The notes under the pieces: generated by a model
Database searches by the model: none
What the model was told of the DNA's origin: nothing
What the model saw: the letters and a program-made list of their open reading frames with translations, nothing else
Made by a program: the position numbers and the translations under genes
Source: an archaeon
GTDB lineage: Archaea > Iainarchaeota > Iainarchaeia > Iainarchaeales > CSSED10-239
NCBI GenBank assembly: GCA_041657425.1
Contig: JBBABY010000009.1
Coordinates: 15,394 to 47,393, forward strand
DNA length: 32,000 nucleotides
Direction of reading: 5' to 3'
Shown: positions 4,611 through 32,000 of the stretch, piece after piece
Position numbering within the stretch: the first letter of the stretch is position 1
How the letters are laid out: each line of letters starts with the position of its first letter

Positions 4611-4619
4611 GGAGACGCA

Positions 4620-5423: not shown

Positions 5424-5432
5424 TGAATACCT

Positions 5433-5441: not shown

Positions 5442-5461
5442 CCATATAGCGGAGTCCCCTA

Positions 5462-5878: not shown

Positions 5879-5888
5879 GGATAGGCAT

Positions 5889-7145
5889 ATGGCAAACGTA
5901 ACAATCAAAGATGAAGACCAGATGAGTACAGAAGCTCTTCGGCTTCTGCAAGACAATACTCAGATCACAAACGTCTCAGATGGCACCCTCGCCAGAGCCT
6001 TGATCCGTGCTATTAGTGATATGCATGGAAAACAATATCGTATCCTTACGCGTGAACTAGCCAATGGATTCTTAAGTACGGCAACTGGTGTATACCTTGA
6101 TATGTTTGGCGTCCTATTAAGTACGCCTAGAGGTTCCAGTACTCTAGCCGGTAGAGAGAATGTACAGAGATTCTACTCCACTGATGGCCTGACACCTATA
6201 GCGAGCCTAGTAGGAGCCGGAAGTCTAGGCGGAGTTATTCCAGCTGGGACTATCGTTCAGTCTGGGAATGGCTCTATTCGCTACGAAGTTGTCTTCAATG
6301 TTCCCTTTAGCTCAACAGACCTTCAGGTTATGGCAACCGTTAGAGCTGTAACAGAAGGTGTAACTTCTAATGTTGGTACCAATATCCTCACCACGCATTC
6401 GCTAAGTGTTACGGGCTTATCTACCACAAACATTCTTGGTATCTCCAATGGCACAGATATACAAGGCGATAGTGAATATCGCTACATGCTATCCAAAGCG
6501 ATCACAGCAGCAGAAGCCGCAAATGAGATCTCTATTAGACTGGCTGCCTTATCAGTAGCAGGCGTATCAGATGTAAGACTTCTTCCCTATTTCCATGGCG
6601 TTGGAACATTCACTGTTCTAGTAATAGGAACAACTCCAGTGGTATCAGCTCAAGTCCTAGAGGGTGTACGAGCTGCGGTATCTGGAGTAACTGCTCTCGG
6701 GGAGTTCTTCTCAGTCCGTGGCCCGAGGTATATAGGAACAGAGCTGCAGGCCAAGCTCATCTTTAGAGATGATGCCGATGAGACTGCAAGAACTAGCATA
6801 GCTGCTAGGGTAACTGATGTGCTATACGAATATATAAATAACCTACCCCTAGGCGAAGGTTTGGTATGGAATGAAATTATACAACGGATCATGGAGACTT
6901 CGCCACTGATCCACGATATTGATGATGATCCTGCCTCCGCCTCATGCCTCCGAGTGTGGACATGGACTCCGACTATTATGGATATCATAAACAATGTAGA
7001 GACATATCACAGAGTCAAAGAAGAGCTCAAAGAGCCTACTCGTAACTACGAAGCTTATTCGGATGATAAGATGATCGTAGAGCAAGACCTTCAGGGTTTT
7101 GTTCATGAAGCCAACTTCACGCCTATACGCATTACCTGGGAGTAA
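5889..7145 (+). CDS. Baseplate J-like protein (P2 gpJ / T4 gp6 family)
   Basis: 418-aa ORF with AAGGA 7 nt upstream. N-terminal LARALIRAISDMHGKQYRILTRELANGFLSTATGVYLDMFGVLLSTPRGSSTLAGRENVQRF matches the characteristic Baseplate_J signature (..A.G..LD..G...G..R..A..A). Conserved gp25-J gene order. Confidence 0.8.
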   Translation: MANVTIKDEDQMSTEALRLLQDNTQITNVSDGTLARALIRAISDMHGKQYRILTRELANGFLSTATGVYLDMFGVLLSTPRGSSTLAGRENVQRFYSTDGLTPIASLVGAGSLGGVIPAGTIVQSGNGSIRYEVVFNVPFSSTDLQVMATVRAVTEGVTSNVGTNILTTHSLSVTGLSTTNILGISNGTDIQGDSEYRYMLSKAITAAEAANEISIRLAALSVAGVSDVRLLPYFHGVGTFTVLVIGTTPVVSAQVLEGVRAAVSGVTALGEFFSVRGPRYIGTELQAKLIFRDDADETARTSIAARVTDVLYEYINNLPLGEGLVWNEIIQRIMETSPLIHDIDDDPASASCLRVWTWTPTIMDIINNVETYHRVKEELKEPTRNYEAYSDDKMIVEQDLQGFVHEANFTPIRITWE

Positions 7146-7152
7146 CTTCTAA

Positions 7153-10100
7153 ATGTCTCCAATCCCTTCTGGTTTATCAGCATCGTTCTTCTATACAGAC
7201 ACGACAATAGAAGAGCATGTCCTTGAGCCAGGTAAGGCTTTCTATTCCCCGTTCACTCAGAAGCTAGCTAATTACTATCCGGGATGGATGGAACTTCGGA
7301 TTGATAAGTCTTCTGTTGGCCAGCAGATTATCAACACAGCAGGTATCCAGTTACAAGAACTAGACCGTGCCTTTGACTTAATGAAGAATAGCCTTCATCT
7401 CTCAACGGCAGATCTTAATGCCGCTGATGTTCTTTACAAGGTTAAGCTAAGTCGAGTGGTTGCACTTGATGAGGATAACCCTCCCGCCTTGCATGGTGAC
7501 GGCGCCGACATTATTATATCCGATAGCTCAGATGAGTTCCTAAGACAAGTTTTCCCTACCCGCATCGAGGTTGAAGCCTCTGGACTGGGCGCTAGTGGTG
7601 TAACAGAGGGTCTCGTTATTCCGGATCTAACCTACGGAGTAGAGTACTATACCCCCTGGGTAGACCAGCATAAAGAAGAAAAGGACCTATACTACAACTG
7701 GGATGAGGCTTCTCAGAAGCTTATTAAGTTCCACCTAATTAGTGAAGGGATGGAGCGCCCTCAAGAGATCCCTGTGCATAAGGAAGTTCTTGGCTATTAT
7801 AGTCTTCTAGATCACGAGGGTGATCCTATTACCGGAGACTTCCACGGCATCACCATTGACGATGACCGTTTATATATGCTCTTCGGAAATCTCCTATATA
7901 TCTTTGATGCACGCATATCCCTACTGCTAAATACGGATGCCAGCTGGGATGGCAATAAGGAACAAAGCTTCCTACAGGCTAAGTGCGACGCTATCATTTT
8001 AGACGGAGTACAACAGGGTGCGGGCATTCTAGTAGATGGAGACAGATCTCAGAAGTGGCTATGGTGCTACGATAATTGGGGCTGGATTAAGTATCGACTT
8101 CACTATGACTATGCTATTGTTGACTATGATACAAACACAATCTTCTTTAGAGAAGAGTACACAACCTGCCTAGTTGACGGAACCACATACGATCAGGAAC
8201 TCCACAATGTGTGGAACTGGTTTGACGAGTACGGCCTAGTCCTAGATACAGAGAGACTGCTCGGAGAACCTAATGAAGAGTATCAGGCGCGGCTACTGAA
8301 TGTTATGAAGTTCCGTGCGAACTCAACTACCCAGGGAGTGATCGACGGCGTAACACAAAGTCTCGACCTTGACAACTGGGGCTATTTCCCATCTGGCCTA
8401 TATCCCGAGAACCTATTCGTGGATGGTCTCTTTCCTAGTGGATACCCGATCTACCCCAGTGGGAACATCCCAGTTGACATTGGAGACGTAGCTCTAGTAG
8501 ATGCTTTATATACTCCCGCATTCTATGAGACGGTTGTCGACTCTGAGACTAACATCCCAACAGTTGAGATGGTTGATTATACAAAGGAAATCCTAAAGAC
8601 CTTCCCTATCTTCTGGGGGTCAGGGACTCCTGACCAATATGGATTCATCTGGGACATTGCCCCCTTCGATGGTGGCTATAACAACGTAAGTATAACTCCG
8701 GACTTCATGGCATTGCTGCCATCGGGCATTGATGAGAAATGGTATCAGTCTGGCATACAGGACGTAAACCCACTCACCTCCAAAGAACTGATGGTACGGC
8801 TATCTAGAACAGACGAGGACGAATGGATCCCGGAAGTTTGGAATGGTGACTTTCATATCCACAACAAGCTCTACTACCTATACGCACAAGGCGTTGCAGA
8901 AGTCATACCTTCAGGAGTAACAAGCTATAGCATCCTAGGTAGCGGCCTAATGATCCCTGGCGGCCATAAGGAACTCATCGCTAATGAGACCTTTAATAGT
9001 GGCTTGATCCACCTTGCCTCAGGCACCGAAATGCTTCCCGTTCATGAATTCACAGATAACGGAATGGAATATATGGTGTCTGGCAATACGTTACTTATGG
9101 ATCCAGAGCACGGCGAATTATGCTTCTGGTACGAGACCTCACCCTCGGGATGGTATACAATACCGGGCTGGGACTTCAACCCAACACACGCAGCCCTATA
9201 TGACGGATTCATTTGGATCTCTGACCAGAGACAAATGATCGACCCGTCTGGTAGCTATACGCTAGAAGTAACTCCCGACTCCATTCCGTTTGGTGGAGCT
9301 GGTGGAGGAAGTGTCGTATTGGGCACCTTACTAGATACAGCCGGCGAACCCATCATAGGCGCCGACGTATACTTCAGAGTCATTCCTAGTGGACTGGGTG
9401 AACTAACTGATGAGTATAGAATGACAGGCTTGACAGGTCAGGCCTATACCTTCTATAATTCACCAGTAGATATAAGTACTATATGGGCAGACCAAGTATC
9501 TATAGATAATCCTACTAATTCCCTAGTGGTAGATGATCTTATCACAAGCGATGAATATGATAAGATCTGGACGGTTACTACCGAAGCTAGTGCTGTATCG
9601 GGATACCCTGGTAATATTCAAAAGGTATGGATGGCTTACCACGAGACCTTAACTCTAACTGTGGCTAGCGGCGAATGGCTACCAGTGCCCTCGGGCTGGC
9701 ATGAAGACAGCCTAGGGAACCAGACCTATCAAGGATATGTCACCATCGGTGGAAGTGAATTGAACGGCACAATAGGCGGCGCAGATTACGGAGATGACCT
9801 GTTCAATATTGATTTAACCTCTATTAAGTATGCTGGCCTACAGGCCATAAAAGAGGTTGGTAATACAAGCCTTCCTTTCGCATATAGATATGAAATAGAT
9901 GATTACACCGAACCTAAGGACTACGGGAAAGTGCTGGTTTATGCTGTTACAATACCTACGGGATCTGTACAAGTCAGCTTTGATACTTACAGGCCAGTAC
10001 GGCCAGTGAATGTGGTCCCCAATTCTCCTACGGCCGGCCAGACTACATTGTATTATGGCGAGCCAACCGCAACTATCGATGCTTCCAAGACATATCAGGT

Positions 10101-10266
10101 TGGGTATCCACAGGTCGCCACGATTGAGTCCTGGGCCGTATGGGAAGGCGTCGAGACTATTCACCAATTTAAGAGCATAAGTATGAGCTTCTCGGACGAG
10201 CAGTCGGGGACATTCCGCCTCGATGATAAGTTCGCAGACTTCGTCTCATACCTAAGATATATCTAA
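7153..10266 (+). CDS. large baseplate wedge/peripheral protein with Mu gp48 / DUF2313-like segment
   Basis: 1037-aa ORF starting 7 nt after the J-like stop. Segment WNWFDEYGLVLDTERLLGEPNEEYQARLLNVMKFRANSTTQGVIDGVTQSL resembles the gp48/YmfQ (DUF2313) motif (W...LGL.....E....R..L......GT). That family follows gpJ homologues in Mu/P2/PBSX-type baseplate modules. The rest is unrecognised and contains 10 copies of the tetrapeptide x-P-S-G. Confidence 0.55.
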   Translation: MSPIPSGLSASFFYTDTTIEEHVLEPGKAFYSPFTQKLANYYPGWMELRIDKSSVGQQIINTAGIQLQELDRAFDLMKNSLHLSTADLNAADVLYKVKLSRVVALDEDNPPALHGDGADIIISDSSDEFLRQVFPTRIEVEASGLGASGVTEGLVIPDLTYGVEYYTPWVDQHKEEKDLYYNWDEASQKLIKFHLISEGMERPQEIPVHKEVLGYYSLLDHEGDPITGDFHGITIDDDRLYMLFGNLLYIFDARISLLLNTDASWDGNKEQSFLQAKCDAIILDGVQQGAGILVDGDRSQKWLWCYDNWGWIKYRLHYDYAIVDYDTNTIFFREEYTTCLVDGTTYDQELHNVWNWFDEYGLVLDTERLLGEPNEEYQARLLNVMKFRANSTTQGVIDGVTQSLDLDNWGYFPSGLYPENLFVDGLFPSGYPIYPSGNIPVDIGDVALVDALYTPAFYETVVDSETNIPTVEMVDYTKEILKTFPIFWGSGTPDQYGFIWDIAPFDGGYNNVSITPDFMALLPSGIDEKWYQSGIQDVNPLTSKELMVRLSRTDEDEWIPEVWNGDFHIHNKLYYLYAQGVAEVIPSGVTSYSILGSGLMIPGGHKELIANETFNSGLIHLASGTEMLPVHEFTDNGMEYMVSGNTLLMDPEHGELCFWYETSPSGWYTIPGWDFNPTHAALYDGFIWISDQRQMIDPSGSYTLEVTPDSIPFGGAGGGSVVLGTLLDTAGEPIIGADVYFRVIPSGLGELTDEYRMTGLTGQAYTFYNSPVDISTIWADQVSIDNPTNSLVVDDLITSDEYDKIWTVTTEASAVSGYPGNIQKVWMAYHETLTLTVASGEWLPVPSGWHEDSLGNQTYQGYVTIGGSELNGTIGGADYGDDLFNIDLTSIKYAGLQAIKEVGNTSLPFAYRYEIDDYTEPKDYGKVLVYAVTIPTGSVQVSFDTYRPVRPVNVVPNSPTAGQTTLYYGEPTATIDASKTYQVGYPQVATIESWAVWEGVETIHQFKSISMSFSDEQSGTFRLDDKFADFVSYLRYI

Positions 10267-10277
10267 GAGGGGCGCCG

Positions 10278-12980
10278 ATGAGCGTAAATTCAAGTAGCAG
10301 TTCAGACAACCTAGATAATGTCTTCAGCGAGCCACTCTTCAACAGAAACGAAGTGGTTAACTCGACCAAGCTCAACCAACTAGGAGCACAGGTCGGAGCC
10401 CAGTTTGATATTGTTAGCGAGGCTGTCGGGAACACCTATAGCCAAGGCATTCCTAATGTGGGCGGATCACTGGGTGATCAAGCTCTTCTAACGCCTACTC
10501 CTCTTAACTCAGACGATCCTCTAGGCACCGTTCCACTAATGTATTCAGCAGCAAACACACTCTTCAACAAGATTGAAGGATGTACTACAAGCTGGACTCA
10601 GGCAACTATCGATGGCATCTTAACAGATATATGCACAGTCACACTGCCGACTGGTAGTCAGATATCAGCTGATCTAGCTGTCGCCGACGACGAACATGAA
10701 GTTGTTAAGAACGTTGTTCTCTCAATAGGGAACACATTCTACCCTGGGATATACCTAACGCCAACAGGGCACTCAACCCATGTCGATATGGATTCATTGA
10801 TCTATGTCGGTCGCGATATCCCGAATAGTGAAACCAACTGCACGCTGTATGTATCTAACCTAAGTACCACAGCGGCGTTAGAAGAAGTTATCCGTAACGT
10901 TGGAGATCTAACGGTCTCCAGGCTAACAGGATATGTTCTTACAGATACGGCTATCTCAACCGAGTCAGCCTACCCAACGATCACAAAGAGTATCAACTCT
11001 ATTGATGACAAACCTGTCACTGTGCGTTGGCATGCTCGCCTAGCGTTTGATCCAGCAACACATCTACCTACAACTGGGGCACTCTCTGGTCCAAACTGGG
11101 TTTGGACAACAACTGCTAGTGCTTCCTCATGGGCGGATGGTAACCCGTCTCCCACCATGGTTAGAGCACTTATCGCTAACGACATAACTAATACCTGGCT
11201 GAATGTTAATAGTTCATTTAGTCCATTAGCCTATGCTAACGGAGCACCACTCCTGAATAGCACTGGCACTCCAATCGCAGTTACAGTAGGCTACCAACAC
11301 TCAACAGGTACTCTTACTATAACAATGCCAACGTACACAACCGTCTTCGCTAATCTATTCAGCACCTATAGCGACCAATCTCCCGCCTATATCGATGTCT
11401 ACTTCGCTGTAGAAGTTCCCTATAGGCTTCTACAGTCTTACTCAACTACCTATGACCACGAAGGTGCTGATGATAGATACCTATTCAAGCATATCCTTGG
11501 CGATCAGTATGGATGGTCTGAGGCCAGTGGATACCCAAACACAATAGCCAATAGGCTAGATGCCGATGAGGCTGACATTGCAACTCTGATGGGCCAGGCT
11601 TCTAACTCGCTGCGCACTCATGAGACAGTTACAGTTGATATCGCTGACATCCTTGCTTCAAGAACAACTATAGAGAGTGCTCTTGTCAACAACGTTATGA
11701 CACCATCCATCTTCTCGGATATCGTTAGTAACGCTGATCCGGCTATTACACATCACACTGTAGCCCTACAGCCAGGCATACACAACCTAAATTCAAGTCC
11801 ACTCATAGTGCCTGCATTCAACTCTATCATTGGAGTATCAGCAGACGAGTGTAAGATCAATGGAAATATTGTTCTTGGCCGCGGTGCAACTCTTGAGAAC
11901 GTGAACGTTTTGGGTACAGTAACCTGTGGCGAGGCGCCAGAGGACGTACAGAGCGACACTCTTGCAGACAACCTATACAACTGGGCAGAAATGTTCTCTA
12001 TACATTGTCCAGCCGGAACAACCACGGGCTCATCAATTATTAATCAAGCGTGGCCGTATGGATATGGCACCAACTCTACTGCCACTACGCGTTGGACCTG
12101 TGCACCAATTACAACTGGGACAGGTTCTATATCTGTCGGAGCAGAGAAAGATTCAAGTGGAGTTAATAGACTGGTTGCTTCCTCTATCGCTCCTGGTGGA
12201 AGCTCAGCATCGTTCACTCTCAACACAAACTCTTTCAATAGTGTTGCAATCAATAACACGATATATGCCAGAATAAAGGTGCCTACTATAAGTGCCAGTA
12301 CGGCTGAAGCTGGCGTAGGAATGCTTACTGGAACCCGCGGGGTAAGGGTTCATGTCTTAAATAGCGGTGGAACGCGATACTGGAACGTCCAGGCTACTGG
12401 AGATGGTTCGACTTGGGGAGGGTATGGAAGTCCAATAGCTATTGGAACTCCCAACCCATACACAGAGTGGACCGATCTTAAAATCGTGTGGTATACAATA
12501 AAGGTTGATGTATATGCCAAGACTATAGCAGGAGCCTACACATTAATTGCAAGTGTGAATCTCCCTGGGAGTTTAAGTCCTATAATGGGAACAGCCTATG
12601 GTCAGATCTATAGTAAGACACCAGCCAGCGGAACCTCAACAATTGAATGTTGCAGGTTCTTTATTAAACAGACAGCATCCTCTGCAGTTGATCCTCTTGC
12701 TGGCTCCAACCCTACAACTACAACAACACTAATAAGGCATGGTATTAATAAGTGCCATATATATAACCCAGCAAGTAGTGGAATCATCCACAACAATATG
12801 CTTGCTGGAGTAGAAATTACTAATAGTCGAGTGACTGCTAAAGCTCCAGTTAGCTACACTGGTAACAAACTGGCTATATCTAGTAGCTCAAGAAGGTCCA
12901 ATAATACATCTGGGTATATGAGACTGCTCGATTCTGATGGCCAGATTGCAGAGATTCTTGGCGTGGAGCAGTATATCTAA
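10278..12980 (+). CDS. structural protein, possibly fibre/receptor-binding-like (function unknown)
   Basis: 900-aa ORF with GAGGGG upstream. N-terminus FNRNEVVNSTKLNQLGAQV resembles N-terminal motifs of phage fibre-type proteins. The central part has a short beta-helix-like stretch (NGNIVLGRGATLENVNVLGTVTCG). The C-terminal part looks like a jelly-roll (TEWTDLKIVWYTIKVDVYAKT). The ORF is solid; the function is a guess. Confidence 0.5.
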   Translation: MSVNSSSSSDNLDNVFSEPLFNRNEVVNSTKLNQLGAQVGAQFDIVSEAVGNTYSQGIPNVGGSLGDQALLTPTPLNSDDPLGTVPLMYSAANTLFNKIEGCTTSWTQATIDGILTDICTVTLPTGSQISADLAVADDEHEVVKNVVLSIGNTFYPGIYLTPTGHSTHVDMDSLIYVGRDIPNSETNCTLYVSNLSTTAALEEVIRNVGDLTVSRLTGYVLTDTAISTESAYPTITKSINSIDDKPVTVRWHARLAFDPATHLPTTGALSGPNWVWTTTASASSWADGNPSPTMVRALIANDITNTWLNVNSSFSPLAYANGAPLLNSTGTPIAVTVGYQHSTGTLTITMPTYTTVFANLFSTYSDQSPAYIDVYFAVEVPYRLLQSYSTTYDHEGADDRYLFKHILGDQYGWSEASGYPNTIANRLDADEADIATLMGQASNSLRTHETVTVDIADILASRTTIESALVNNVMTPSIFSDIVSNADPAITHHTVALQPGIHNLNSSPLIVPAFNSIIGVSADECKINGNIVLGRGATLENVNVLGTVTCGEAPEDVQSDTLADNLYNWAEMFSIHCPAGTTTGSSIINQAWPYGYGTNSTATTRWTCAPITTGTGSISVGAEKDSSGVNRLVASSIAPGGSSASFTLNTNSFNSVAINNTIYARIKVPTISASTAEAGVGMLTGTRGVRVHVLNSGGTRYWNVQATGDGSTWGGYGSPIAIGTPNPYTEWTDLKIVWYTIKVDVYAKTIAGAYTLIASVNLPGSLSPIMGTAYGQIYSKTPASGTSTIECCRFFIKQTASSAVDPLAGSNPTTTTTLIRHGINKCHIYNPASSGIIHNNMLAGVEITNSRVTAKAPVSYTGNKLAISSSSRRSNNTSGYMRLLDSDGQIAEILGVEQYI

Positions 12981-23608: not shown

Positions 23609-26600
23609 ATGCCAAGCTATTGGTCCCCCACTAGGACAATCGAGGATTCTGAATTCGTACAACGGGATGGCTCCGTTGTTATGATAGGGAATCTTGACCT
23701 CGGTGGCTTTGGCATCAACAATCTCATTGATCCCTCTGGCGCTCAAGACGCAGCTACCAAACATTATGTTGATGAACTGCTTGCCTCAGGAGTTTGGCAC
23801 AGCAACTTGGCTGGGCTGCAGGGCGGCACAACCGGCGAATACTTCCACCTTACCGCAACCCAAGAATTAATCATCCCAGATAACATGGTCTCCGCCAGCG
23901 GTAAAGTCTTAACCACAGATGGTATATCAGGATACTGGGGAACAATCTCCGCCCTCCTGGGAACCTCTGGCTACTCTGGATATACCGGTGCTAGCGGAAC
24001 AAGTGGCCATACTGGCGCAAGTGGCAGAACAGGAACTTCCGGATGGTCGGGGTACACTGGCTATACCGGAGCCTCCGGTTCTTCTGGATTCACAGGACGG
24101 AGTGGAACCTCGGGTTATACTGGAACCTCAGGTACGAGTGGTTACACTGGCATAAGTGGCACATCGGGTTGGTCGGGGCACACTGGAGTTAGCGGTTGGA
24201 CGGGTGTTTCGGGAACCTCTGGTTGGTCAGGATATACAGGAGCGAGTGGCGCCTCAGGCTATACAGGTATATCTGGTGCCTCGGGCTGGTCTGGCCATAC
24301 AGGCATTTCGGGCAAGTCGGGCTACACAGGAGCATCTGGTGTTTCGGGTTACACCGGCGTATCTGGTACGACCGGCACTTCCGGCTGGTCAGGATATACT
24401 GGCACAAGTGGATGGACGGGTACTTCTGGTACCTCAGGATACACTGGTGCGTCTGGTGTTAGCGGCTGGTCCGGATATACGGGCACCAGTGGAGCGAGTG
24501 GCCATACAGGAGCATCGGGAATTTCAGGTTGGACCGGGGTCTCTGGAAAGTCAGGCTACACTGGGGCTAGTGGAACTTCGGGTTACACCGGCACATCAGG
24601 CACAAGCGGTTACACTGGTACCTCAGGCTGGACAGGCACTTCGGGCCAAAGCGGTTATACCGGGACAAGTGGTGCGTCTGGCTACACGGGAGCTAGCGGA
24701 TCTTCAGGCTATACTGGTGTGTCTGGAACAAGCGGACAGTCTGGCTATACTGGTGCCTCTGGAACTTCAGGATACACAGGAACTAGTGGAACGTCAGGTT
24801 GGTCGGGCTATACAGGCATAAGTGGCGAGAGCGGGACATCGGGTCAATCTGGATACACAGGAGCCTCAGGAACTTCAGGATATACAGGTGCTTCTGGAAC
24901 GAGTGGCCATTCAGGAACTCCCGGTGCGGTTACGGGACAGAAGCTATACTTTGACCATGCCAAGGAAGTCTTCTTCGTCCCTGTTTCGCAAGCGTCAGCA
25001 AGTAGATTACTCACGTTTACCAACATTGGAACGGGAGGAACGATAGTAGCAAGCGGTGCTACTCCTGGAAGCTTTATAACAGACGGCTGGATTGCAGGTC
25101 AAAAGCTCACTGTTACAAACTCGGGGGTTGCAGGACTAGATGGTAAAGACGCCTGTATTCGGTCAGTAGACTCGCCAACACAAATGACCTTGACCAATGG
25201 CTATGGTGTTGTAACTAATTCAACAAATAACAGCACAGCAACTATCACTATAGATAACGAGACAATATCGAGACTCCCGCCAAACGGAGCAGCTGTTAGC
25301 GAAACCGTCACCAATATTAACAATGCCTCATCCTTCGTGGATATAGATAGCTATGTTACAGTCACAGGCTTTCCGGGCACTTCTCTTATTCCTGGAGGAG
25401 TATGGAAGTTCCACGGGACTTGGTCAGCATCTAGTATAACCAATACGAATGGTGGGTATATAGTACTAGCTAGATCGGCGGATGGATTAACAACTACACT
25501 CATTTCAGGTGGAATAGTAGGAGTCGTACCATCGGTAGGATCCTTAACTACTTCCCCCGTTGCCTACGATACTTACTGGGTTATACCAGCAGATATTCCA
25601 ATTCTAACGACAGATACAATTGTTGTAAGAGCGGTTGCTACCAATAGTGGCGTGGCAGCAAAAGATGTTACTTGGACCTATGGTGGATTAACAGATCCGT
25701 CTTACATAGAAACAACTTTATCTATTGAAGGCATTTCAGGCTGGTCTGGTTACACTGGTGTGTCGGGCGCAAGTGGATATACAGGCGTATCTGGTACATC
25801 TGGATTCACTGGCGCTTCAGGCGCGAGTGGTTACACAGGGGTATCCGGCAAGTCCGGCTACACCGGTACATCTGGGTCATCTGGATTCACTGGAGCTAGT
25901 GGCACATCCGGGGCCTCTGGTTATACTGGCATTTCAGGAACTAGCGGACAATCTGGCTACACGGGGGCAAGTGGGACCTCGGGCTATACGGGTACATCAG
26001 GAATTAGTGGAACATCCGGTATCTCTGGATGGTCTGGTTATACTGGGGCATCTGGCAAGTCGGGGTATACAGGGGCATCAGGTACGAGCGGATGGTCCGG
26101 ATATACAGGCATCTCTGGAACTAGTGGGACCTCCGGTTATACTGGAGCTTCTGGTTCTAGCGGAACTAGTGGATATACAGGAGTAAGTGGAACTTCCGGA
26201 ACCTCAGGTTGGAGCGGATATACTGGAATATCTGGAGCTTCGGGTACTTCGGGCTGGTCAGGATATACCGGCGTAAGTGGAAATTCAGGATGGTCTGGTA
26301 TATCGGGCATAAGTGGCGCTAGTGGATATACTGGTACCTCAGGGACTTCAGGCTATACAGGGATTAGCGGAACATCTGGAACTTCTGGCTGGACTGGAAC
26401 TAGTGGTACGAGTGGTCGGTCTGGATACACTGGTGTCTCTGGAGCAAGTGGCTCCAGTGGTTACACTGGCATTTCTGGAGCTTCTGGTGCCTCGGGCTAT
26501 ACCGGCTTATCTGGTACTTCTGGTACCTCAGGTTATACGGGGATCTCTGGTGCTTCAGGCACTAGCGGCATTAGCGGGTACACCGGAGCCTCTGGTGCAT

Positions 26601-29600
26601 CTGGCTGGAGTGGCTACACTGGGACATCAGGCACAAGCGGTACGTCAGGCTACACTGGTGCCAGCGGAACCTCGGGAAAATCCGGTTATACGGGAACTAG
26701 CGGAACTAGCGGCTACACCGGCATTTCGGGAGTATCAGGTTGGACAGGCGCTAGCGGCACGAGCGGATATACTGGGATCTCTGGTCTTTCAGGAACCTCT
26801 GGCCTATCTGGATACACTGGCACGAGTGGTCAAAGTGGATATACAGGCACATCAGGCACGTCAGGAAGCTCCGGATATACTGGCGTCTCTGGCGCTTCAG
26901 GAGTTAGCGGTTGGACTGGAGCAAGTGGTGTATCAGGAGCTAGTGGGACAAGCGGCTATACGGGTGTTTCTGGTAAGTCTGGCTATACTGGAATCAGTGG
27001 GCAGAGTGGCACCAGTGGCTGGACCGGAGTTAGTGGTCAAAGCGGACAGTCGGGATATACAGGCGCAAGCGGTATTAGTGGCCATACAGGCACCAGCGGA
27101 ACTTCTGGCATCTCAGGTTGGACTGGGACATCTGGAGTAAGCGGTTTTACGGGAGCATCTGGTACATCTGGAACTTCTGGATATACCGGTGTATCAGGAG
27201 TAAGTGGACAAAGCGGTTACACTGGTATCTCTGGAAGCTCGGGCTGGACAGGATATTCCGGCACGAGTGGAATATCAGGAACTTCAGGATGGACTGGTAC
27301 GGGTGGCAAATCAGGTTGGTCTGGATATACCGGTACTTCGGGAACTAGCGGATACTCGGGAGTCTCTGGTTATTCGGGCTACAGTGGACAAGACGGACAA
27401 ACTATACCAGGTGAATCTGGTTACAGTGGCTATACTGGCCAAAGCGGATATTCTGGATACACAGGGTATTCGGGAGCTAGTGGTTATTCTGGCGTATCTG
27501 GTTACAGCGGGTATAGCGGAGAGAGTGGCTACTCGGGATACACAGGTATATCTGGCTATAGTGGCTTCTCCGGCGTCTCTGGTTATAGCGGTTATTCTGG
27601 AGAGAGTGGATACAGCGGATTCACTGGTGAGTCTGGTTACTCAGGATACAGCGGGATTAGCGGATATAGCGGATTCTCCGGCAGTGGGCTATCGGGTTAT
27701 TCTGGCTACTCTGGGGTTAGTGGGTACAGTGGATTTAGCGGTGTGTCTGGATACTCAGGTTATACCGGCGCCAGTGGCATAAGCGGCTACTCTGGTTACA
27801 CTGGTGATAGTGGGATCTCAGGATACAGTGGGTATAGTGGCGCCAGTGGGATTTCTGGGTACTCAGGCTATTCGGGTATCTCAGGGTATAGTGGGAACTC
27901 AGGGATCAGCGGCTACTCAGGGTACACTGGAGTATCTGGGTACAGTGGCTTTTCTGGTAAGTCTGGATATAGCGGTTACTCGGGAGAGTCTGGTTACTCG
28001 GGTTATACAGGTGAGAGTGGATATAGTGGATACACTGGAGTAAGCGGCTACAGTGGTTATACTGGTATCTCAGGGTACTCAGGTTACTCTGGAACTTCTG
28101 GCTATTCAGGTTTCTCTGGCATCAGTGGTTATACAGGCGAATCAGGCCTTAGTGGTTACTCCGGATTCTCTGGGGGATCTGGGTATAGTGGCTTCTCTGG
28201 CGAAAGTGGTTACAGTGGATTTAGTGGAGAGAGTGGTTACTCTGGATATTCTGGAATAAGCGGCTACTCGGGCTACACAGGCATATCGGGTTACAGTGGT
28301 TATACCGGAGCGAGTGGTATCAGCGGCTATTCAGGATACACGGGTGCCTCTGGTATTTCAGGGTATTCTGGGTACACAGGAGCAAGCGGCTTAAGTGGAT
28401 ACAGCGGATATACGGGAGCATCTGGCGAATCTGGATATAGTGGTTTCTCCGGAGTTTCTGGCTACAGTGGCTATTCGGGATTCAGCGGGGAGTCTGGGTA
28501 TTCAGGTTACACAGGTACAAGTGGGTATAGTGGATATACCGGACTTAGCGGCTACTCCGGTTATAGCGGTATCTCGGGTTATTCTGGATATACAGGCGTT
28601 AGTGGGTATAGTGGTTACACTGGCATAAGTGGTTATAGTGGCTCAGGCGTTTCCGGATACTCTGGTTATAGCGGAACAAGTGGGTACTCAGGAGCATCGG
28701 GTTATAGTGGTTATTCAGGAGAGAATCTTACCGTATCTGGTACAAGTGGCTATCTGCCACGATTCTATACTGATGATACATTAGGAGATAGCGCTTTAAG
28801 AACTGGTCAGTCTTGGAATGACGAACATGGCTACGCCTATGCCCCTGCTGACATTGTCGTAGACGGTCCAGGGGCAAGTGGATCTTTTGTTAGCGGCAGC
28901 TTTGGAGCAAGAAGATTAACAGATCAAACAGGATTCTGGTACTTCGCTGATTTCGGTTGGGATAATGAAGCTCTCCCTCCCTATATGACCTTTGGAGATG
29001 GTGGAGCAAATGTCATGCTCCTTGGGCAATATGCCACCATAGCCTCTTCGGCAACACATGTAACACTTACATCTACTCAAGATATTTTTAATAGATTAGG
29101 AGATGCTTCTGGTGTAAGAAAGATATATATCCAAAATTCAAGTACTCAAGATGTTGCTTCTATTGATAGCTCGGGCTCTGCATCGTTCAAAGATCTTATA
29201 CTCACAGTTCCATCTGATACTCCTCCAATAACAGTAACGAGCACAGTGCTATGTCCAAACTTAAATGCCGATCTTCTTGATGGTCATCATTGGGCCGAAA
29301 TAACCACTATGTCTGGTTACTCGGGATATACTGGAGTTAGTGGTACTTCGGGTTACACGGGAGTGTCTGGTAAAAGCGGCTATACAGGTGCAAGTGGTAT
29401 CTCAGGCTTTAGCGGGACCTCAGGTCTCAGCGGATACTCTGGATATCAAGGTAACAAAGCTGGAGCGCTTTACTACTTTGATACAACTACAGCTGAGGGA
29501 ACAGGCGGGGATGGTTGCGTAAGATTCAATGCACCCACTACCTCTGCAACAACAGAAATCTATATAGATGATGCGGACGTTAACGGTCTCAACTTCGCAG

Positions 29601-31348
29601 CCTGGGCTGCTAATATCGGCAGCAACTCCCACCTATATATATCAGTTAATGATGCCGCTCAGGCTTATGTTGCTGTCTTTAGTGTTACTGGCAATAGCTA
29701 TGAGGCTTCCTCATACTTTAAGTTAATAGTTACAAAGATAGCGGGCGCAGTCTCGTCTATTCCTGATAACAGCCAACGTATTAACCTCTGGTATATAGAT
29801 AAGGGAACCGCTGGAGCAAGTGGTTATTCGGGGGTATCCGGCTTTACTGGCGCATCAGGCATCAGCGGCTATAGCGGACTCTCTGGGGTATCAGGTCAGT
29901 CGGGTTACTCTGGCTTCACAGGAGTATCGGGCGTATCGGGTTACTCCGGTATATCAGGATTTACTGGAGCCAGCGGCAAGTCTGGTTATTCTGGTTACAG
30001 CGGCCTATCTGGTTACTCAGGTTATTGTGGCCTCTCCGGCCATAGTGGCTACTCTGGAAGCGGTGTATCTGGTTATTCCGGATATTCTGGTTCAGGAGTT
30101 ACCGATCACGGTGCGTTGACTGGGCTTTCGGACGACGATCACCCACAGTACCAGAAGGAGTCGGAGAAGGACGAGGCAAGCGGGTATGTTGGGTTAGACG
30201 AAGATAAAAAAATAGCAGTTGGAGACGAAGCCACCACAACGGCACAAGCAAATGTGAGGGCGAAAACGTATGCGACCGTTGGACTTGCGATAAAAGGAAA
30301 AACAGAACCAACCGATATAAAGGAACCAGATGAGGTGTTCGGGACAAACCTAAAAGGATGGTATAAGGCAGAAAACATAACCGGAAAATCGGATGGAGAC
30401 GCCCTGACTCAATGGGACGACCTCTCTGGAAATGGGTATCACATGACCGTCCCCTCCGGAAAAACTGGGGCGCAGTATTACTCAAACACGCTAAACGGAA
30501 AAGCCGTGACCAGATGGACAACTGGGGATGGAATGGCAAATTCTAGTTTTCCACATGGGAATGACCTTGCGATCTTTATGGTATTTAAAAGAGCCGGTAA
30601 TTATTCGCGGTGGGACCGGCACATTCAGGGAGTTGGTGGAAAAAACTGGTGGGTTGGTTTAAGGGATGACGAGAACAACGGGAGTAAGAAAATAACAGTG
30701 AATCTGGACGGTGGATCAATTGGGTATATTTCAGGGTACAACACGCAAGACCAATATTATCTTGTCTCGGTGAGGAGAAGTTCTACCCAAGCGATATTAG
30801 CAAGGAGAAACAGCGAGAGCGACACGGCAACTGGTTTAACAGGAAAAGATATGGGAACCGGAATGGCGATAAGCGGAGGAGGAACATACGCTGAATATGT
30901 TTATGGAGATATTGCAGAAATAATTTATGCCGACTGTCTTCCTACAGCAACGCAGATGGCCGACATAAACAATTATGTTCTGAGTGAATACGGAATAACC
31001 GGGATGTCAGAGCAGGAGGGATCAAGTAGCGGGCTGACTCAGACGGCAGACTTCATACAGGCCATAAATAATGATGGAACGGTTTTAACTGGGATTGATA
31101 AAAACGGAAGTATGAAATTTAAATCAGGGTCAAATATGAGATTGGGGCAAGCGACTCTTTTAAGTGGGACCGTGACCGTCAACAACACAACCATTACGGC
31201 CAACACTATGATTTTCATGCAAAGGGTAAGTGGATCGAACGAAGGGCATCTTGAATACAGCATTACAGCAGGAACATCATTTACGATTACAAGCACGAAC
31301 ACATGGGACGATGGTGTGATAAACTGGTTATTAGTAGAATCAATGTGA
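23609..31348 (+). CDS. giant collagen-like tail fibre / receptor-binding protein with C-terminal LamG-like lectin domain
   Basis: 2579-aa ORF with AAGGAG (23597..23602) 6 nt upstream. The N-terminus has classic fibre motifs (LDLGGFGINNLIDPSGAQDAATKHYVDE; HSNLAGLQGGTTGEYFHLT). Four Gly-X-Y blocks total ~1471 aa and are interspersed with three globular segments (24932..25729, 28727..29314, 29459..29803). Further fibre motifs are LPRFYTDDTLGDSAL, LNADLLDGHHW and GLSDDDHPQY, followed by a LamG-like domain and a terminal beta domain. Confidence 0.9.
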   Translation: MPSYWSPTRTIEDSEFVQRDGSVVMIGNLDLGGFGINNLIDPSGAQDAATKHYVDELLASGVWHSNLAGLQGGTTGEYFHLTATQELIIPDNMVSASGKVLTTDGISGYWGTISALLGTSGYSGYTGASGTSGHTGASGRTGTSGWSGYTGYTGASGSSGFTGRSGTSGYTGTSGTSGYTGISGTSGWSGHTGVSGWTGVSGTSGWSGYTGASGASGYTGISGASGWSGHTGISGKSGYTGASGVSGYTGVSGTTGTSGWSGYTGTSGWTGTSGTSGYTGASGVSGWSGYTGTSGASGHTGASGISGWTGVSGKSGYTGASGTSGYTGTSGTSGYTGTSGWTGTSGQSGYTGTSGASGYTGASGSSGYTGVSGTSGQSGYTGASGTSGYTGTSGTSGWSGYTGISGESGTSGQSGYTGASGTSGYTGASGTSGHSGTPGAVTGQKLYFDHAKEVFFVPVSQASASRLLTFTNIGTGGTIVASGATPGSFITDGWIAGQKLTVTNSGVAGLDGKDACIRSVDSPTQMTLTNGYGVVTNSTNNSTATITIDNETISRLPPNGAAVSETVTNINNASSFVDIDSYVTVTGFPGTSLIPGGVWKFHGTWSASSITNTNGGYIVLARSADGLTTTLISGGIVGVVPSVGSLTTSPVAYDTYWVIPADIPILTTDTIVVRAVATNSGVAAKDVTWTYGGLTDPSYIETTLSIEGISGWSGYTGVSGASGYTGVSGTSGFTGASGASGYTGVSGKSGYTGTSGSSGFTGASGTSGASGYTGISGTSGQSGYTGASGTSGYTGTSGISGTSGISGWSGYTGASGKSGYTGASGTSGWSGYTGISGTSGTSGYTGASGSSGTSGYTGVSGTSGTSGWSGYTGISGASGTSGWSGYTGVSGNSGWSGISGISGASGYTGTSGTSGYTGISGTSGTSGWTGTSGTSGRSGYTGVSGASGSSGYTGISGASGASGYTGLSGTSGTSGYTGISGASGTSGISGYTGASGASGWSGYTGTSGTSGTSGYTGASGTSGKSGYTGTSGTSGYTGISGVSGWTGASGTSGYTGISGLSGTSGLSGYTGTSGQSGYTGTSGTSGSSGYTGVSGASGVSGWTGASGVSGASGTSGYTGVSGKSGYTGISGQSGTSGWTGVSGQSGQSGYTGASGISGHTGTSGTSGISGWTGTSGVSGFTGASGTSGTSGYTGVSGVSGQSGYTGISGSSGWTGYSGTSGISGTSGWTGTGGKSGWSGYTGTSGTSGYSGVSGYSGYSGQDGQTIPGESGYSGYTGQSGYSGYTGYSGASGYSGVSGYSGYSGESGYSGYTGISGYSGFSGVSGYSGYSGESGYSGFTGESGYSGYSGISGYSGFSGSGLSGYSGYSGVSGYSGFSGVSGYSGYTGASGISGYSGYTGDSGISGYSGYSGASGISGYSGYSGISGYSGNSGISGYSGYTGVSGYSGFSGKSGYSGYSGESGYSGYTGESGYSGYTGVSGYSGYTGISGYSGYSGTSGYSGFSGISGYTGESGLSGYSGFSGGSGYSGFSGESGYSGFSGESGYSGYSGISGYSGYTGISGYSGYTGASGISGYSGYTGASGISGYSGYTGASGLSGYSGYTGASGESGYSGFSGVSGYSGYSGFSGESGYSGYTGTSGYSGYTGLSGYSGYSGISGYSGYTGVSGYSGYTGISGYSGSGVSGYSGYSGTSGYSGASGYSGYSGENLTVSGTSGYLPRFYTDDTLGDSALRTGQSWNDEHGYAYAPADIVVDGPGASGSFVSGSFGARRLTDQTGFWYFADFGWDNEALPPYMTFGDGGANVMLLGQYATIASSATHVTLTSTQDIFNRLGDASGVRKIYIQNSSTQDVASIDSSGSASFKDLILTVPSDTPPITVTSTVLCPNLNADLLDGHHWAEITTMSGYSGYTGVSGTSGYTGVSGKSGYTGASGISGFSGTSGLSGYSGYQGNKAGALYYFDTTTAEGTGGDGCVRFNAPTTSATTEIYIDDADVNGLNFAAWAANIGSNSHLYISVNDAAQAYVAVFSVTGNSYEASSYFKLIVTKIAGAVSSIPDNSQRINLWYIDKGTAGASGYSGVSGFTGASGISGYSGLSGVSGQSGYSGFTGVSGVSGYSGISGFTGASGKSGYSGYSGLSGYSGYCGLSGHSGYSGSGVSGYSGYSGSGVTDHGALTGLSDDDHPQYQKESEKDEASGYVGLDEDKKIAVGDEATTTAQANVRAKTYATVGLAIKGKTEPTDIKEPDEVFGTNLKGWYKAENITGKSDGDALTQWDDLSGNGYHMTVPSGKTGAQYYSNTLNGKAVTRWTTGDGMANSSFPHGNDLAIFMVFKRAGNYSRWDRHIQGVGGKNWWVGLRDDENNGSKKITVNLDGGSIGYISGYNTQDQYYLVSVRRSSTQAILARRNSESDTATGLTGKDMGTGMAISGGGTYAEYVYGDIAEIIYADCLPTATQMADINNYVLSEYGITGMSEQEGSSSGLTQTADFIQAINNDGTVLTGIDKNGSMKFKSGSNMRLGQATLLSGTVTVNNTTITANTMIFMQRVSGSNEGHLEYSITAGTSFTITSTNTWDDGVINWLLVESM
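23960..24931 (+). repeat. collagen-like block 1: 108 uninterrupted G-X-[S/T] triplets (dialect A)
   Basis: Counted triplet by triplet from GTS GYS GYT GAS ... to GHS GTP GAV. Gly is at every third residue with no break. Y position is Ser/Thr in 106/108 triplets, and there is one Pro. An aromatic residue (Y/W/H/F) occupies X roughly every third triplet. Confidence 0.95.
25730..27349 (+). repeat. collagen-like block 2a: ~180 G-X-[S/T] triplets (dialect A)
   Basis: GIS GWS GYT GVS ... GTG GKS GWS GYT GTS GTS. Same composition as block 1, including Trp at X positions. Confidence 0.95.
27350..28726 (+). repeat. collagen-like block 2b: ~459 aa of Tyr/Phe-dense G-[Y/F]-S-G-[Y/F]-[S/T]-G-x-S repeats (dialect B)
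   Basis: GYS GVS GYS GYS GQD GQT-IP-GES GYS GYT GQS ... GYS GYS GEN. Tyr or Phe occupies about two of every three X positions, with no Trp. Register breaks are at ~27401..27409 (IP insertion), ~27680..27688 (G-S-G) and ~28640..28648 (G-S-G). Confidence 0.95.
29315..29458 (+). repeat. collagen-like block 3: 16 G-X-Y triplets
   Basis: GYS GYT GVS GTS GYT GVS GKS GYT GAS GIS GFS GTS GLS GYS GYQ GNK, read directly. Confidence 0.9.
29804..30103 (+). repeat. collagen-like block 4: ~100 aa, dialect-B-like, with two G-S-G breaks and a single Cys
   Basis: GTA GAS GYS GVS GFT ... GYS GYC GLS GHS GYS GS GVS GYS GYS GS GVT. The Cys codon TGT is at 30026..30028. Confidence 0.9.
30340..31000 (+). other. 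LamG / concanavalin-A-like lectin domain at the fibre tip
   Basis: LKGWYKAENITGKSDGDALTQWDDLSGNGYHMT...NGKAVTRW...LAIFMVFKR...YYLVSVRRS...GTYAEYVYGDIAEIIYADCLPTATQMADINNYVLSEYGI. The start (W.a......g..v..W.D.SGNG.h) and the end (GDIAE.I.Y...L.......I..YL..KYGI) are typical of bacterial/phage Laminin_G_3-type domains. Borders are approximate. Confidence 0.7.
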
Positions 31349-31358
31349 GGAGAACCAG

Positions 31359-31562
31359 ATGGCCCCGATAGAAGCGAAGGAAGGAATTGGGTGGGTTTCA
31401 GCCATCGTGGGTTTCTTCGTTGCTATCTATCGATATCCAATAATAGAGACGGGAACAACTAAACTAAGTCAGCTTATAGGGCAGCTCATCATTGCCGATA
31501 CTGCTTCTTTGCCTGCAACATACATTCGCGGTATTAATAAAACACAGCTACTTGCTAGCTAA
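31359..31562 (+). CDS. small hydrophobic protein (unknown; possible fibre-associated or membrane protein)
   Basis: 67-aa ORF with GAGGAG (31347..31352) 6 nt upstream. It has a hydrophobic stretch, GIGWVSAIVGFFVAIY (nt ~31386..31435). It shares the AAA-rich codon style of the fibre 3' end. Confidence 0.6.
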   Translation: MAPIEAKEGIGWVSAIVGFFVAIYRYPIIETGTTKLSQLIGQLIIADTASLPATYIRGINKTQLLAS

Positions 31563-31564
31563 GC

Positions 31565-31593
31565 TTGACAAAACTCTAATTATCATATAATAT
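31565..31593 (+). promoter_or_regulatory. sigma70-like promoter candidate upstream of the glycosyltransferase gene
   Basis: Perfect -35 TTGACA at 31565..31570. The -10 is either TATAAT at 31586..31591 (15-nt spacer) or TAATAT at 31588..31593 (17-nt spacer). Located in the 62-nt intergenic gap, with GGGAG at 31610..31614 ahead of ATG 31625. Confidence 0.5.
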
Positions 31594-31624
31594 ATAGGAA
31601 ATTCTTGCTGGGAGCTATCTTCTT

Positions 31625-32000
31625 ATGCCTAAATGCTCTATTGTTATTCCCACTTTTAACCATTGTGATGATCTTCTCAAACCCTGCCTAGAATCCATCC
31701 GCAAATATACAGACCTTTCCATGGTTGAGGTTATTGTTGTAGCCAATGGCTGCAAAGATAACACACGAGAGTATGTTGAATCTCTGGGCGACCCATTCAA
31801 ACTCCTATGGTTTGATGAAGGTCTAGGTTATACTAAAGCAACCAATGAGGGCATGAAGATAGCAACGGGCGAATATATTATCCCGCTTAATAACGATGTC
31901 CAGATCCTCGACCTAGGTCAAGGTCATAACAAGTGGCTTAATGATCTACTAAAGCCCTTCGAAACAGATGAGTCTATTGGTATCACTGGCCCCATGCTTT
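31625..32000 (+). CDS. glycosyltransferase family 2 (GT-A fold), 5' partial; runs off the window end
   Basis: Not in the supplied ORF track because there is no stop in the window. My own translation from ATG 31625 gives MPKCSIVIPTFNHCDDLLKPCLESIRKYTDLSMVEVIVVANGCKDNTREYVESLGDPFKLLWFDEGLGYTKATNEGMKIATGEYIIPLNNDVQILDLGQGHNKWLNDLLKPFETDESIGITGPML with no stop. It has the canonical GT2 N-terminus (SIVIPTFN ... DNT.EY ... G...A.N.G...A.GEYI..LNND). An in-frame TAG at 31595..31597 limits upstream extension. Confidence 0.85.
   Translation, partial: MPKCSIVIPTFNHCDDLLKPCLESIRKYTDLSMVEVIVVANGCKDNTREYVESLGDPFKLLWFDEGLGYTKATNEGMKIATGEYIIPLNNDVQILDLGQGHNKWLNDLLKPFETDESIGITGPML

Follow-up and report, generated by a model that had tools for sequence, protein, structure and literature searches.

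A phage-specific glycosyltransferase cassette next to proline-free collagen-like fibres: a candidate system for fibre glycosylation

The anthrose of the collagen-like protein BclA from Bacillus anthracis is O-methylated, the fibrils of mimivirus are glycosylated, and to our knowledge only a few mycobacteriophages have been shown to glycosylate their particles with enzymes of their own. In Clostridioides difficile, the GT-A enzyme SgtA, which is encoded beside bclA3, catalyzes the Mn-dependent addition of beta-O-GlcNAc to Thr and Ser residues of collagen-repeat peptides (PMC7157674). Triplets with Thr are over-represented in bacterial and viral collagens, and the peptide (Gly-Pro-Thr)10 stays a random coil if its Thr residues are not all galactosylated (PMC11923368, citing Mann 1996, Bann 2000). 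The capsid and tail proteins of mycobacteriophages carry glycans (PMC12619734, summarising Freeman 2023), and a 2025 description of the large aquatic "moraphages" reported four core glycosyltransferase (GT) orthogroups, for which DNA, host-serotype and virion glycosylation were discussed as general possibilities (PMC12619734). Here, we have analyzed a stretch of 32,000 nt from contig JBBABY010000009.1, hereafter called the window, which ends inside a GT gene, GT-a, located downstream of a gene for a giant collagen-like fibre. We consider it probable that a phage-specific cassette of soluble enzymes, which would O-glycosylate the fibre, begins with this open reading frame (ORF), the 5' part of its first gene.

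The fibre gene (23609..31348, + strand) encodes a protein of 2579 aa, the presumed acceptor, with a match to the Pfam Collagen family at E=1.2e-191. The protein displays the Gly-X-Y (GXY) periodicity of a collagen triple-helix repeat protein, with 484 uninterrupted triplets arranged in 7 blocks and non-collagen domains located between the blocks and at the C-terminus. The Y positions contain 365 Ser and 107 Thr residues, together 97.5% of the triplets, which is close to the roughly 490 hydroxyls and the almost exclusive use of Ser and Thr at Y that had been estimated in a sequence-only reading of the same DNA. At the X positions, 32% of the residues are Tyr. Pro is essentially absent from the triplets (its fraction at X is 0), and over all 484 triplets there are 13 Lys and Arg residues and 14 Glu and Asp residues at X, while charged residues are nearly absent from Y.

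The GT-a fragment (31625..32000, + strand) starts with an ATG codon, 10 nt downstream of a putative Shine-Dalgarno box, GGGAG (31610..31614, + strand), that was read from the sequence. As had been claimed before, the frame has no stop codon and is open to base 32000; its 125 codons cover the N-terminal half of a GT-A-fold family-2 domain, which is cut by the contig end. The database copy of the protein (P0001) is likewise 125 aa long and is ended by the edge of the 47,393-nt contig, which means that the window ends where its parent contig ends. The fragment matches the Pfam family PF00535 (Glycos_transf_2) with an E-value of 3.9e-20 and a score of 72.9 bits (cut-off 23.3), and the full-length relatives score 51-88 bits against the same family. 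The segments SIVIPTFN, DNTREY and GEYIIPLNNDV, for which the N-terminus had been called canonical, are present, but the position of the DXD motif reads N-N-D. Across GT-a sequences of 37-92% identity this position is L-N-N-D, with N and D invariant and the first N found in at least 90% of the sequences, so that the last Asp is the only residue of the DXD motif that is kept; a later G-E-D-x-D region is seen in full-length relatives. The conservation of the NND variant suggests that it is functional.

An AlphaFold2 model of a homolog (P0008), which is 63% identical to the window fragment, has a predicted TM-score (pTM) of 0.75 and a per-residue confidence (pLDDT) above 85 for residues 1-110, while the C-terminal third is of low confidence. 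In a Foldseek search of the PDB with this model, 341 matches were obtained at E<=1e-3, and the best 50 of the 341 were all GT-A enzymes. The window ORF is thus a real member of glycosyltransferase family 2, with a GT-A fold in the model of its homolog. The PDB comparisons of sequence and fold retrieved generic GT-A enzymes of many specificities and did not give the donor or the acceptor, and the high TM-scores of the model to polypeptide GalNAc-transferases are non-discriminating. Comparisons to the phages in GenBank gave no match by blastn with positions 31300-32000 and only generic matches of less than 36% identity by tblastn with the GT fragment; tblastn with a collagen block had no match either, which is explained by the filtering of low-complexity sequence.

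The remainder of the gene could be followed on other contigs. A look-up of the 67-aa protein encoded between the fibre and GT-a led to a Logan contig of 77,426 nt (L001), which agrees with the window at every position over 10,297 nt, the whole fibre included, and carries a second allele from window position 31656. The last 140 nt of L001 are the same as the first 140 nt of an IMG/VR contig of 149,407 nt (L008; 140/140 identities), and joining the 77-kb and 149-kb contigs over this overlap indicates a genome of at least about 226 kb, the size of a jumbo phage. The same junction is bridged independently by a JGI contig of 3,340 nt (L121), which contains the end of the 67-aa ORF, the promoter region and then the L008 allele, with which it is identical over 3,294 nt; it carries genes for proteins of 716 and 338 aa. 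The full GT-a protein in L008 has 716 aa and consists, according to Pfam, of a GT2 domain (residues 5-147), a methyltransferase (MT) domain of the Methyltransf_24 type (283-407) and a Glyco_transf_17 (GT17) domain (434-694). The score of the latter (PF04724, cut-off 26) is 116.8 bits in L008, 106.6 bits in L010 and 102.5 bits in a 712-aa ORF of L002, and the only PDB sequence match to the MT domain of the L008 protein is 6g7d, a "methyltransferase domain protein". Since L001 matches the window and overlaps L008, the MT and GT17 domains are expected in the window phage as well.

In L008, GT-a is followed by a 338-aa GT2 protein (GT2-b), a 133-aa ORF, a 381-aa ORF, a 138-aa protein with a weak match to GT9 (sm) and a DUF5675 protein. 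The suggestion that more genes of the cassette would lie beyond the window was borne out by the second GT2 and the GT9-like protein downstream in L008, and by the presence of both GT-a and GT2-b in L121. It had also been argued that the absence of the GT from phages with an identical fibre would speak against the proposal; L001, with its fibre identical over the 10,297 nt, has the GT. Within the 381-aa ORF (L008:3896-5041), which matches no family and does not recur in other lineages, there is a short collagen-like patch (GHSGISGWSGYKGYDGYEG).

We gathered relatives of the GT fragment from the protein database, from IMG/VR and from their contigs, and compared the ORFs all against all with collagen repeats masked. 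GT-a, GT2-b and sm were the only ORFs common to about 16 otherwise unrelated phage lineages, and the tail genes of the window had no counterpart in the flanks of the other GT-a lineages. Of the 11 GT-a proteins scanned, 9 have an MT in the same chain, and this MT belongs to one of three Pfam types (Methyltransf_24, FkbM or the Methyltransf_11/12/23 group), sometimes with the addition of GT17 or of a second GT2. GT-a either contains an MT or has one next to it, except in L013, where a second GT2 is found in place of the MT. A Pfam GT2 match and an invariant DDD motif characterize GT2-b (about 335 aa; 14/14 members), and a Pfam GT9 match was obtained for 12 of 14 members of sm (about 140 aa), the profile of which aligns to residues 184-293 of heptosyltransferase I in the PDB, corresponding to the nucleotide-sugar-binding C-terminal domain of GT9. 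We also considered that the C-terminus of GT2-b and sm might form a split GT9 (GT-B) enzyme, which was not supported, as six GT2-b C-termini had no NCBIfam GT9 match even at E<=10. Segments of transmembrane strength were found in none of the cassette proteins (no 19-residue window at hydropathy 1.6), and the proteins are predicted to be soluble.

The distribution of the GT-a family indicates that it is phage-restricted and almost absent from cellular genomes. In a set with one genome for each of 185,579 bacterial and archaeal species, only 2 true members of the GT-a family were identified, both on contigs of metagenome-assembled genomes (MAGs), one of which is 39 kb: L046 (JAHEYD010000010.1, from a "Nitrosotalea" MAG) and L045 (CAISKH010000379.1, from a "Mucilaginibacter" MAG). 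The other 74 cellular loci contain generic GT2 genes with partial matches, mostly of 25-35% identity and up to about 45% over short segments. The gene order in L046 is fibre, GT-a, GT2-b and sm, and it looks like a phage contig that was binned into an archaeal MAG. Among 50,697 GenBank phage records, GT2-b and sm were found in the Methylophilaceae phage P19250A alone. About ten loci among the matches listed in a search of IMG/VR described below have only GT2-b and sm after the fibre, and because these loci and P19250A have a fibre followed by the two genes in the absence of GT-a, GT2-b and sm are the minimal core, with GT-a as a frequent add-on between the fibre and the core.

These data also bear on the alternative of lysogenic conversion, according to which GT-a would be a GtrB-type bactoprenol glucosyltransferase that is expressed from its own sigma70 promoter in the lysogen and changes the O-antigen. 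The N-terminus (residues 3-93) does match PHROG 841, "GtrB-like O-antigen conversion" (E=4e-10), tblastn matches of 32-35% identity were obtained to GtrB of Cronobacter, Salmonella and Enterobacter phages, and a promoter look-alike is present; the match is, however, limited to the generic nucleotide-binding N-terminus. The 716-aa relative has MT and GT17 domains where GtrB would have C-terminal transmembrane helices (maximum 19-residue hydropathy 1.39), a scan of ORFs within the 8.4 kb that follow in L008 found neither GtrA nor GtrC, the genome of at least 226 kb is of jumbo-phage size and the promoter-like site is not statistically special. In view of the lack of transmembrane segments, the lack of GtrA and GtrC neighbours and the near absence of GT-a from cellular genomes, the alternative is not supported, and we regard it as highly improbable.

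The coupling of the cassette to the fibre was examined in both directions, and an ORF was scored as collagen-like if it had a run of 6 or more GXY triplets and a minimum of 30 residues per ORF. Starting from GT-a, a Pro-free GX[S/T] ORF was located within 10 kb in 9 of the 13 lineages with usable flanks, and directly upstream in 7. The stop codon of the fibre and the start codon of the GT overlap as TGATG in the L018-21 and L023/24 lineages. As a control, 76 loci around GT2 genes in cellular genomes (1.27 Mb) contained a single locus with a collagen-like ORF, namely L046, in which a GX[S/T] ORF of 970 aa is located directly upstream and ends 9 nt before GT-a.

In the opposite direction, a degenerate DNA pattern that encodes only G-Y-[ST]-G-x-[ST] repeats was used to scan IMG/VR, which yielded at least 120 loci; every ORF in them was searched with hidden Markov models of GT-a, GT2-b and sm. 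A fibre was counted as qualifying if it had at least 60 GXY residues, a Ser/Thr fraction of at least 0.8 at Y and a Pro fraction below 0.1. The counts from this test, here and below, are for the matches listed. The cassette was recovered in 21 of the 34 loci with a qualifying fibre and at least 2.5 kb of downstream sequence, and in 10 of the 14 loci with 1-2.5 kb, as compared to none of the 12 loci with at least 2.5 kb that contain only Pro-containing or low-S/T collagen ORFs. The difference between 21/34 and 0/12 corresponds to a Fisher p of 1.4e-4, a value that is optimistic because the sampled loci are related and not phylogenetically independent. When the GT2-b sequences from the loci with the cassette were clustered, 40 groups were obtained at 90% identity, 19 at 70% and 8 at 50%, so the coupling signal is not derived from one clone. 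The cassette mostly starts 4-60 nt after the stop codon of the fibre gene, and this spacing, like the TGATG overlap, suggests that in most lineages the cassette is simply co-transcribed with the fibre. Twelve loci that were chosen by the C-terminal domain of the fibre (a short DDDHPQY motif) had neither GX[S/T] repeats nor the cassette, which is a small negative sample, and a collagen block used as a protein query was uninformative, since it retrieved 4 loci, all of which end inside or just after a collagen gene. The earlier suggestion of a phage glycosylation system tied to a Ser/Thr-rich fibre is thereby supported, at the level of gene content, by the full cassette and by its recurrence in both search directions, and fibre glycosylation is strongly suggested by the sequence data.

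The same fractions are relevant to the hypothesis that the cassette remodels the host envelope by altering a lipid-linked, lipopolysaccharide (LPS) or exopolysaccharide (EPS) glycan of the infected cell, thereby blocking superinfection or the sticking of progeny to debris, with the linkage to the fibre explained by a shared hypervariable region for host recognition. Such a role has been proposed for the GT clusters that pelagimyophages carry in their tail-fibre hypervariable region (PMC7029224), the weak best matches of the cassette proteins are to EPS, O-antigen and heptosyltransferase enzymes, the PHROG label of the GT-a N-terminus is "GtrB-like", and the gene has a promoter-like site of its own. 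This hypothesis does not predict that the cassette should track Pro-free GX[S/T] fibres, with 0/12 for other collagen types among the matches listed, nor that it should be found in none of the 12 loci chosen by a general fibre motif. Enzymes for host glycans normally have cellular relatives, whereas the GT-a family is nearly absent from the 185,579 species genomes. Furthermore, the proteins have no transmembrane segments, no flippase, polymerase, ligase or initiating phosphoglycosyltransferase adjoins them, and there is the overlap of stop and start codons with the fibre gene in several lineages. We therefore judge host-envelope remodelling to be rather unlikely, and return to glycosylation of the fibre as the preferred interpretation.

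A few observations weigh against fibre glycosylation, in addition to the relatedness of the sampled loci. Neither L011 nor L012, the latter with GT-a in three tandem copies, has a collagen ORF within reach, and 13 of the 34 GX[S/T] fibre loci with enough flank among the matches listed have no cassette. In L044 (positions 2001-10561), a T4-like head module, the cassette is located between the genes for the prohead protease and gp23 on one side and gp13 and the portal on the other, and there is no collagen-like ORF. The weak similarities to EpsD, to chondroitin and heparosan synthases and to heptosyltransferases would fit a lipid-linked acceptor equally well. The NND variant at the DXD position is conserved, and catalysis by GT-a is a prediction only. 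Finally, GT-a is missing from the minimal cassette, and the window gene may only extend the glycan or act elsewhere.

The arrangement in L044, with gp23 lying between two further GT2 genes, may point to glycosylation of the capsid in this lineage. More generally, the cassette could act on the virion at large, with capsid, decoration or tail-tube proteins as targets and the fibre as a mere neighbour in the late operon. The head-module cassette of L044 and the lack of a nearby collagen ORF in L011 and L012 would be explained in this way, and the glycans of mycobacteriophages are attached to the C-termini of capsid and tail-tube proteins (PMC12619734, citing Freeman 2023). The enrichment for GX[S/T] fibres in both directions and the immediate adjacency of the genes are not expected for a capsid target, however, and no structural gene besides the cassette is common to the lineages; such a general role is unlikely in our opinion, and the fibre remains the better candidate for the acceptor.

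The only cultured carrier of the cassette in GenBank, P19250A (KX815270.1; L242:4750-10400), is a siphovirus of 38.7 kb with the gene order fibre, free-standing MT, GT2-b and sm. Its fibre, encoded by P19250A_0023 and deposited as APC43908.1, is a GX[S] collagen-like protein of 1201 aa with 843 GXY residues. The MT of P19250A shares 62-67% identity with the MT half of the GT-a proteins from L017-L021. In the published annotation, the fibre is called "tail length tape-measure protein" and the three enzymes are hypothetical proteins, and the searched papers that cite P19250A contain no mention of "collagen" or "glycosyl". This genome is also informative with regard to DNA hypermodification, i.e. 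the glycosylation of modified bases in the phage DNA, which is the classical role of phage GTs (reviewed in PMC12619734) and for which the radical-SAM and aminotransferase genes near the GT cluster in L002 could be quoted. A cassette located in a late structural operon and coupled to one fibre type, and found right after the fibre in a siphovirus of 38.7 kb, is not what such a role would predict, and no hydroxymethylase or base-modification genes were found in the L008 continuation. We find modification of DNA very hard to reconcile with these data.

If the fibre is the acceptor, the enzymes would modify the freshly synthesised fibre chain in the cytoplasm late in infection, and would add short O-linked glycans to the Ser and Thr hydroxyls at the Y positions. 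Initiation on the protein would probably be performed by GT2-b and/or the GT9-like sm, because these two constitute the minimal cassette; GT-a and its GT17 domain would then extend the chain, and the MT would cap it with an O-methyl sugar. Because the fibre has neither proline nor the Lys-Gly-Asp/Glu clamps described in PMC11923368, a glycan-based stabilisation of the predicted triple helix is an attractive role for the modification: as is the case for Thr-glycosylated collagens, the sugars would lend stability to a helix with no proline and few charge pairs. They could also render the fibre hydrophilic, protease-resistant or adhesive.

Taken further, and only tentatively, the data could point to a large unrecognised class of environmental phages with "glyco-collagen" fibres, from siphoviruses of 38 kb to jumbo phages of more than 200 kb, in which methyl-capped O-glycans on hundreds of Y hydroxyls would be an obligatory folding step. 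Pro-free fibres of up to more than 3000 residues would then need GT2-b and the GT9-like protein, and often GT-a, MT and GT17, to form a triple helix; the cassette would serve as a genomic marker, and the first contact with the host or the environment would be mediated by a glycan coat on the fibre surface that the phage itself has made.

The 5' part of GT-a is variable. In a mosaic patch (31656..31800, + strand), the window allele is 70-89% identical to the allele of L008, L121 and L001 and has no counterpart to a 54-nt insertion; on both sides of the patch the identity is 100%. In a comparison by segments of the window to L008, 46 of 46 positions upstream of the ATG are identical, followed by 89% and then 70% identity across 31625-31790, and 100 of 100 positions at the window end. 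Thus, two alleles of the 5' part appear to circulate on one fibre and promoter background. The ends of three independent assemblies fall within about 420 nt of one another, inside or beside the patch, and suggest that GT-a is subject to recombination or microdiversity. Neither IMG/VR nor the JGI metagenomes contained exact 28-mers that span the junction specific to the window, and a 34-mer across the promoter had no match in IMG/VR; only the L008-type allele was bridged, via L121.

GT-a has also been invaded repeatedly by homing-endonuclease-like ORFs (L009:15-617, L002:10001-11211, L041:10477-12333 and L044:7438-8111). In L009, a remnant copy of the GT 5' end, 44 nt long, precedes an HNH-like ORF. 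In L002, an HNH ORF splits GT-a into an N-terminal piece of 166 aa and a C-terminal piece that is fused to the 712-aa MT-GT17 ORF. Several GT-a homologs in the database stop at the same point, after "...YEEI". A group I intron was considered as the cause of the split genes and was not supported, as there was no Rfam match in L002, L009, L041 or L044; the insertion of free-standing homing endonucleases is a simpler reading than an intron. In the 216-kb scaffold L002 (1620-6373 and 7816-9627), genes for an aminotransferase, an RCC1-repeat protein and four radical-SAM/SPASM proteins are located just upstream of the GT cluster, and a second GT2 and a GIY-YIG endonuclease downstream of it. The radical-SAM and aminotransferase region may encode a sugar- or peptide-modification pathway.

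The GT had been described as directly following the fibre, but 276 nt separate the fibre stop from the GT start, and a 67-aa ORF (31359..31562, + strand) intervenes. This ORF lies outside the conserved cassette, has one borderline hydrophobic segment (maximum KD19 hydropathy 1.51) and no match in Pfam, PHROG or NCBIfam, and is a called gene on at least 3 contigs. An ORF of 67 aa between the fibre and GT-a is also present in L010 (9781-9984), where its sequence is unrelated to that of the window. The intergenic gap between the 67-aa ORF and GT-a measures 62 nt and contains a putative sigma70-like promoter (31565..31593, + strand; scanner score 10/12), composed of TTGACA (31565-31570) followed by TATAAT (31586-31591) with a 15-nt spacer or TAATAT (31588-31593) with a 17-nt spacer.

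The claim that this is the only strong sigma70-like look-alike in the window did not hold, since a perfect 12/12 site is present at 9430-9459 (+), an 11/12 site at 5110-5083 (-) and two other sites at 10/12. Promoter-like sites in the window were not enriched relative to shuffled sequences (21 vs 32.7 expected, and 22 vs 20.2). The sole special feature of the site at 31565-31593 is its location inside the 62-nt gap, and no terminator or stable RNA structure was found between the fibre and the GT (z=0.16; terminator scan). The promoter-like region of L121 is identical to that of the window. The site is a lineage-specific and statistically unremarkable detail; it may add an extra transcription start in this lineage, which the model does not need. 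The perfect consensus, TTGACA-18-TATAAT at 9430-9459 (+), is located inside a structural gene for a protein of 1037 aa (7153-10266) and may represent either chance or an internal promoter.

Upstream of the fibre, the window contains a tail and baseplate module. A gene at 36-4610 encodes a 1524-aa protein with two endolysin-like regions that match PHROG 20474 (residues 1050-1291) and PHROG 465/2649 (residues 541-721), which is probably a tail-associated lysin or a tape-measure-like protein of the jumbo phage.

GT genes near the tail-fibre genes of aquatic phages have so far been interpreted as modifiers of the host O-antigen, and the cassette offers a concrete alternative. If the proposed function is correct, many uncultured phages decorate their own collagen-like fibres, which would change the annotation of such fibres and of "auxiliary" GTs and would be relevant to how phages adsorb, to their host range and to how they are recognised by immune systems or lectins. 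A natural system for the glycan-dependent folding of proline-free collagen would then also be available, as would enzymes for glycosylated recombinant collagen-like materials. The hypothesis is directly testable, as one member, P19250A, can be grown on strain IMCC19250.

Of the described systems, SgtA-BclA3 is similar in that a gene with a GT-A domain is located beside the gene for a collagen-like surface fibre, and SgtA glycosylates GXY repeats in the cytoplasm, with glycans that can be capped (PMC7157674). SgtA uses UDP-GlcNAc and has a C-terminal TPR domain, whereas GT-a has no TPR match and the MT and GT17 domains are found there instead; SgtA is encoded upstream of its substrate gene, whereas GT-a is located downstream, together with GT2-b and a GT9-like protein, and the carrier is a phage virion rather than a spore. 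The likeness to SgtA is one of description and of a generic GT2 fold, and GT-a is SgtA-like at most and not a member of that family. Unlike the GPT-rich repeats of BclA, the repeats of the window fibre are Pro-free, with mainly Ser at Y and many Tyr at X. In the Thr-galactosylated cuticle collagen of Riftia pachyptila, a hydroxyl residue likewise takes the place of hydroxyproline at Y, and glycosylation there confers stability to the triple helix (PMC11923368). That collagen is an extracellular, Pro-containing animal protein modified by an unrelated enzyme, and the analogy is one of mechanism alone.

As in mycobacteriophages, phage-encoded GTs would modify the phage's own structural proteins in the cytoplasm, as judged here from the genes. 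The mycobacteriophage glycans are placed on the C-terminal tails of capsid and tail-tube proteins in actinobacterial hosts, whereas the system described here involves a giant collagen-like fibre and a three-gene set in aquatic and environmental phages. A064R of chlorovirus PBCV-1, a soluble multidomain enzyme with GT and methyltransferase domains that builds methylated virion glycans, resembles GT-a in this combination. PBCV-1 and mimivirus, compared here by description, are nevertheless giant viruses of eukaryotes, with N-linked or polysaccharide glycans and different GT families. The GtrABC modules share with GT-a a family-2 GT N-terminal domain in a phage genome, as seen from the PHROG match, but GtrB is membrane-anchored and works together with the GtrA flippase and GtrC, none of which is present here.

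The serine-rich-repeat systems of the GalT1/Fap1 type and those of autotransporter heptosyltransferases are similar in the cytoplasmic hyper-O-glycosylation of long Ser-rich repeats and in having the GT encoded beside its substrate, and GalT1 (5hea) was among the better PDB matches in both sequence and fold, at the level of the generic fold. The autotransporter heptosyltransferases TibC and AAH are GT9-like, as is sm; unlike these, the cassette contains no full GT9, since sm corresponds to the C-terminal domain only and the GT2-b C-terminus has no GT9 match. A full-text literature search retrieved no paper that links collagen-like fibres of phages with glycosyltransferases or O-glycosylation. 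Dedicated glycosylation of collagen-like surface fibres and glycosylation of phage virions are both already known, and what is new is the cassette and its distribution.

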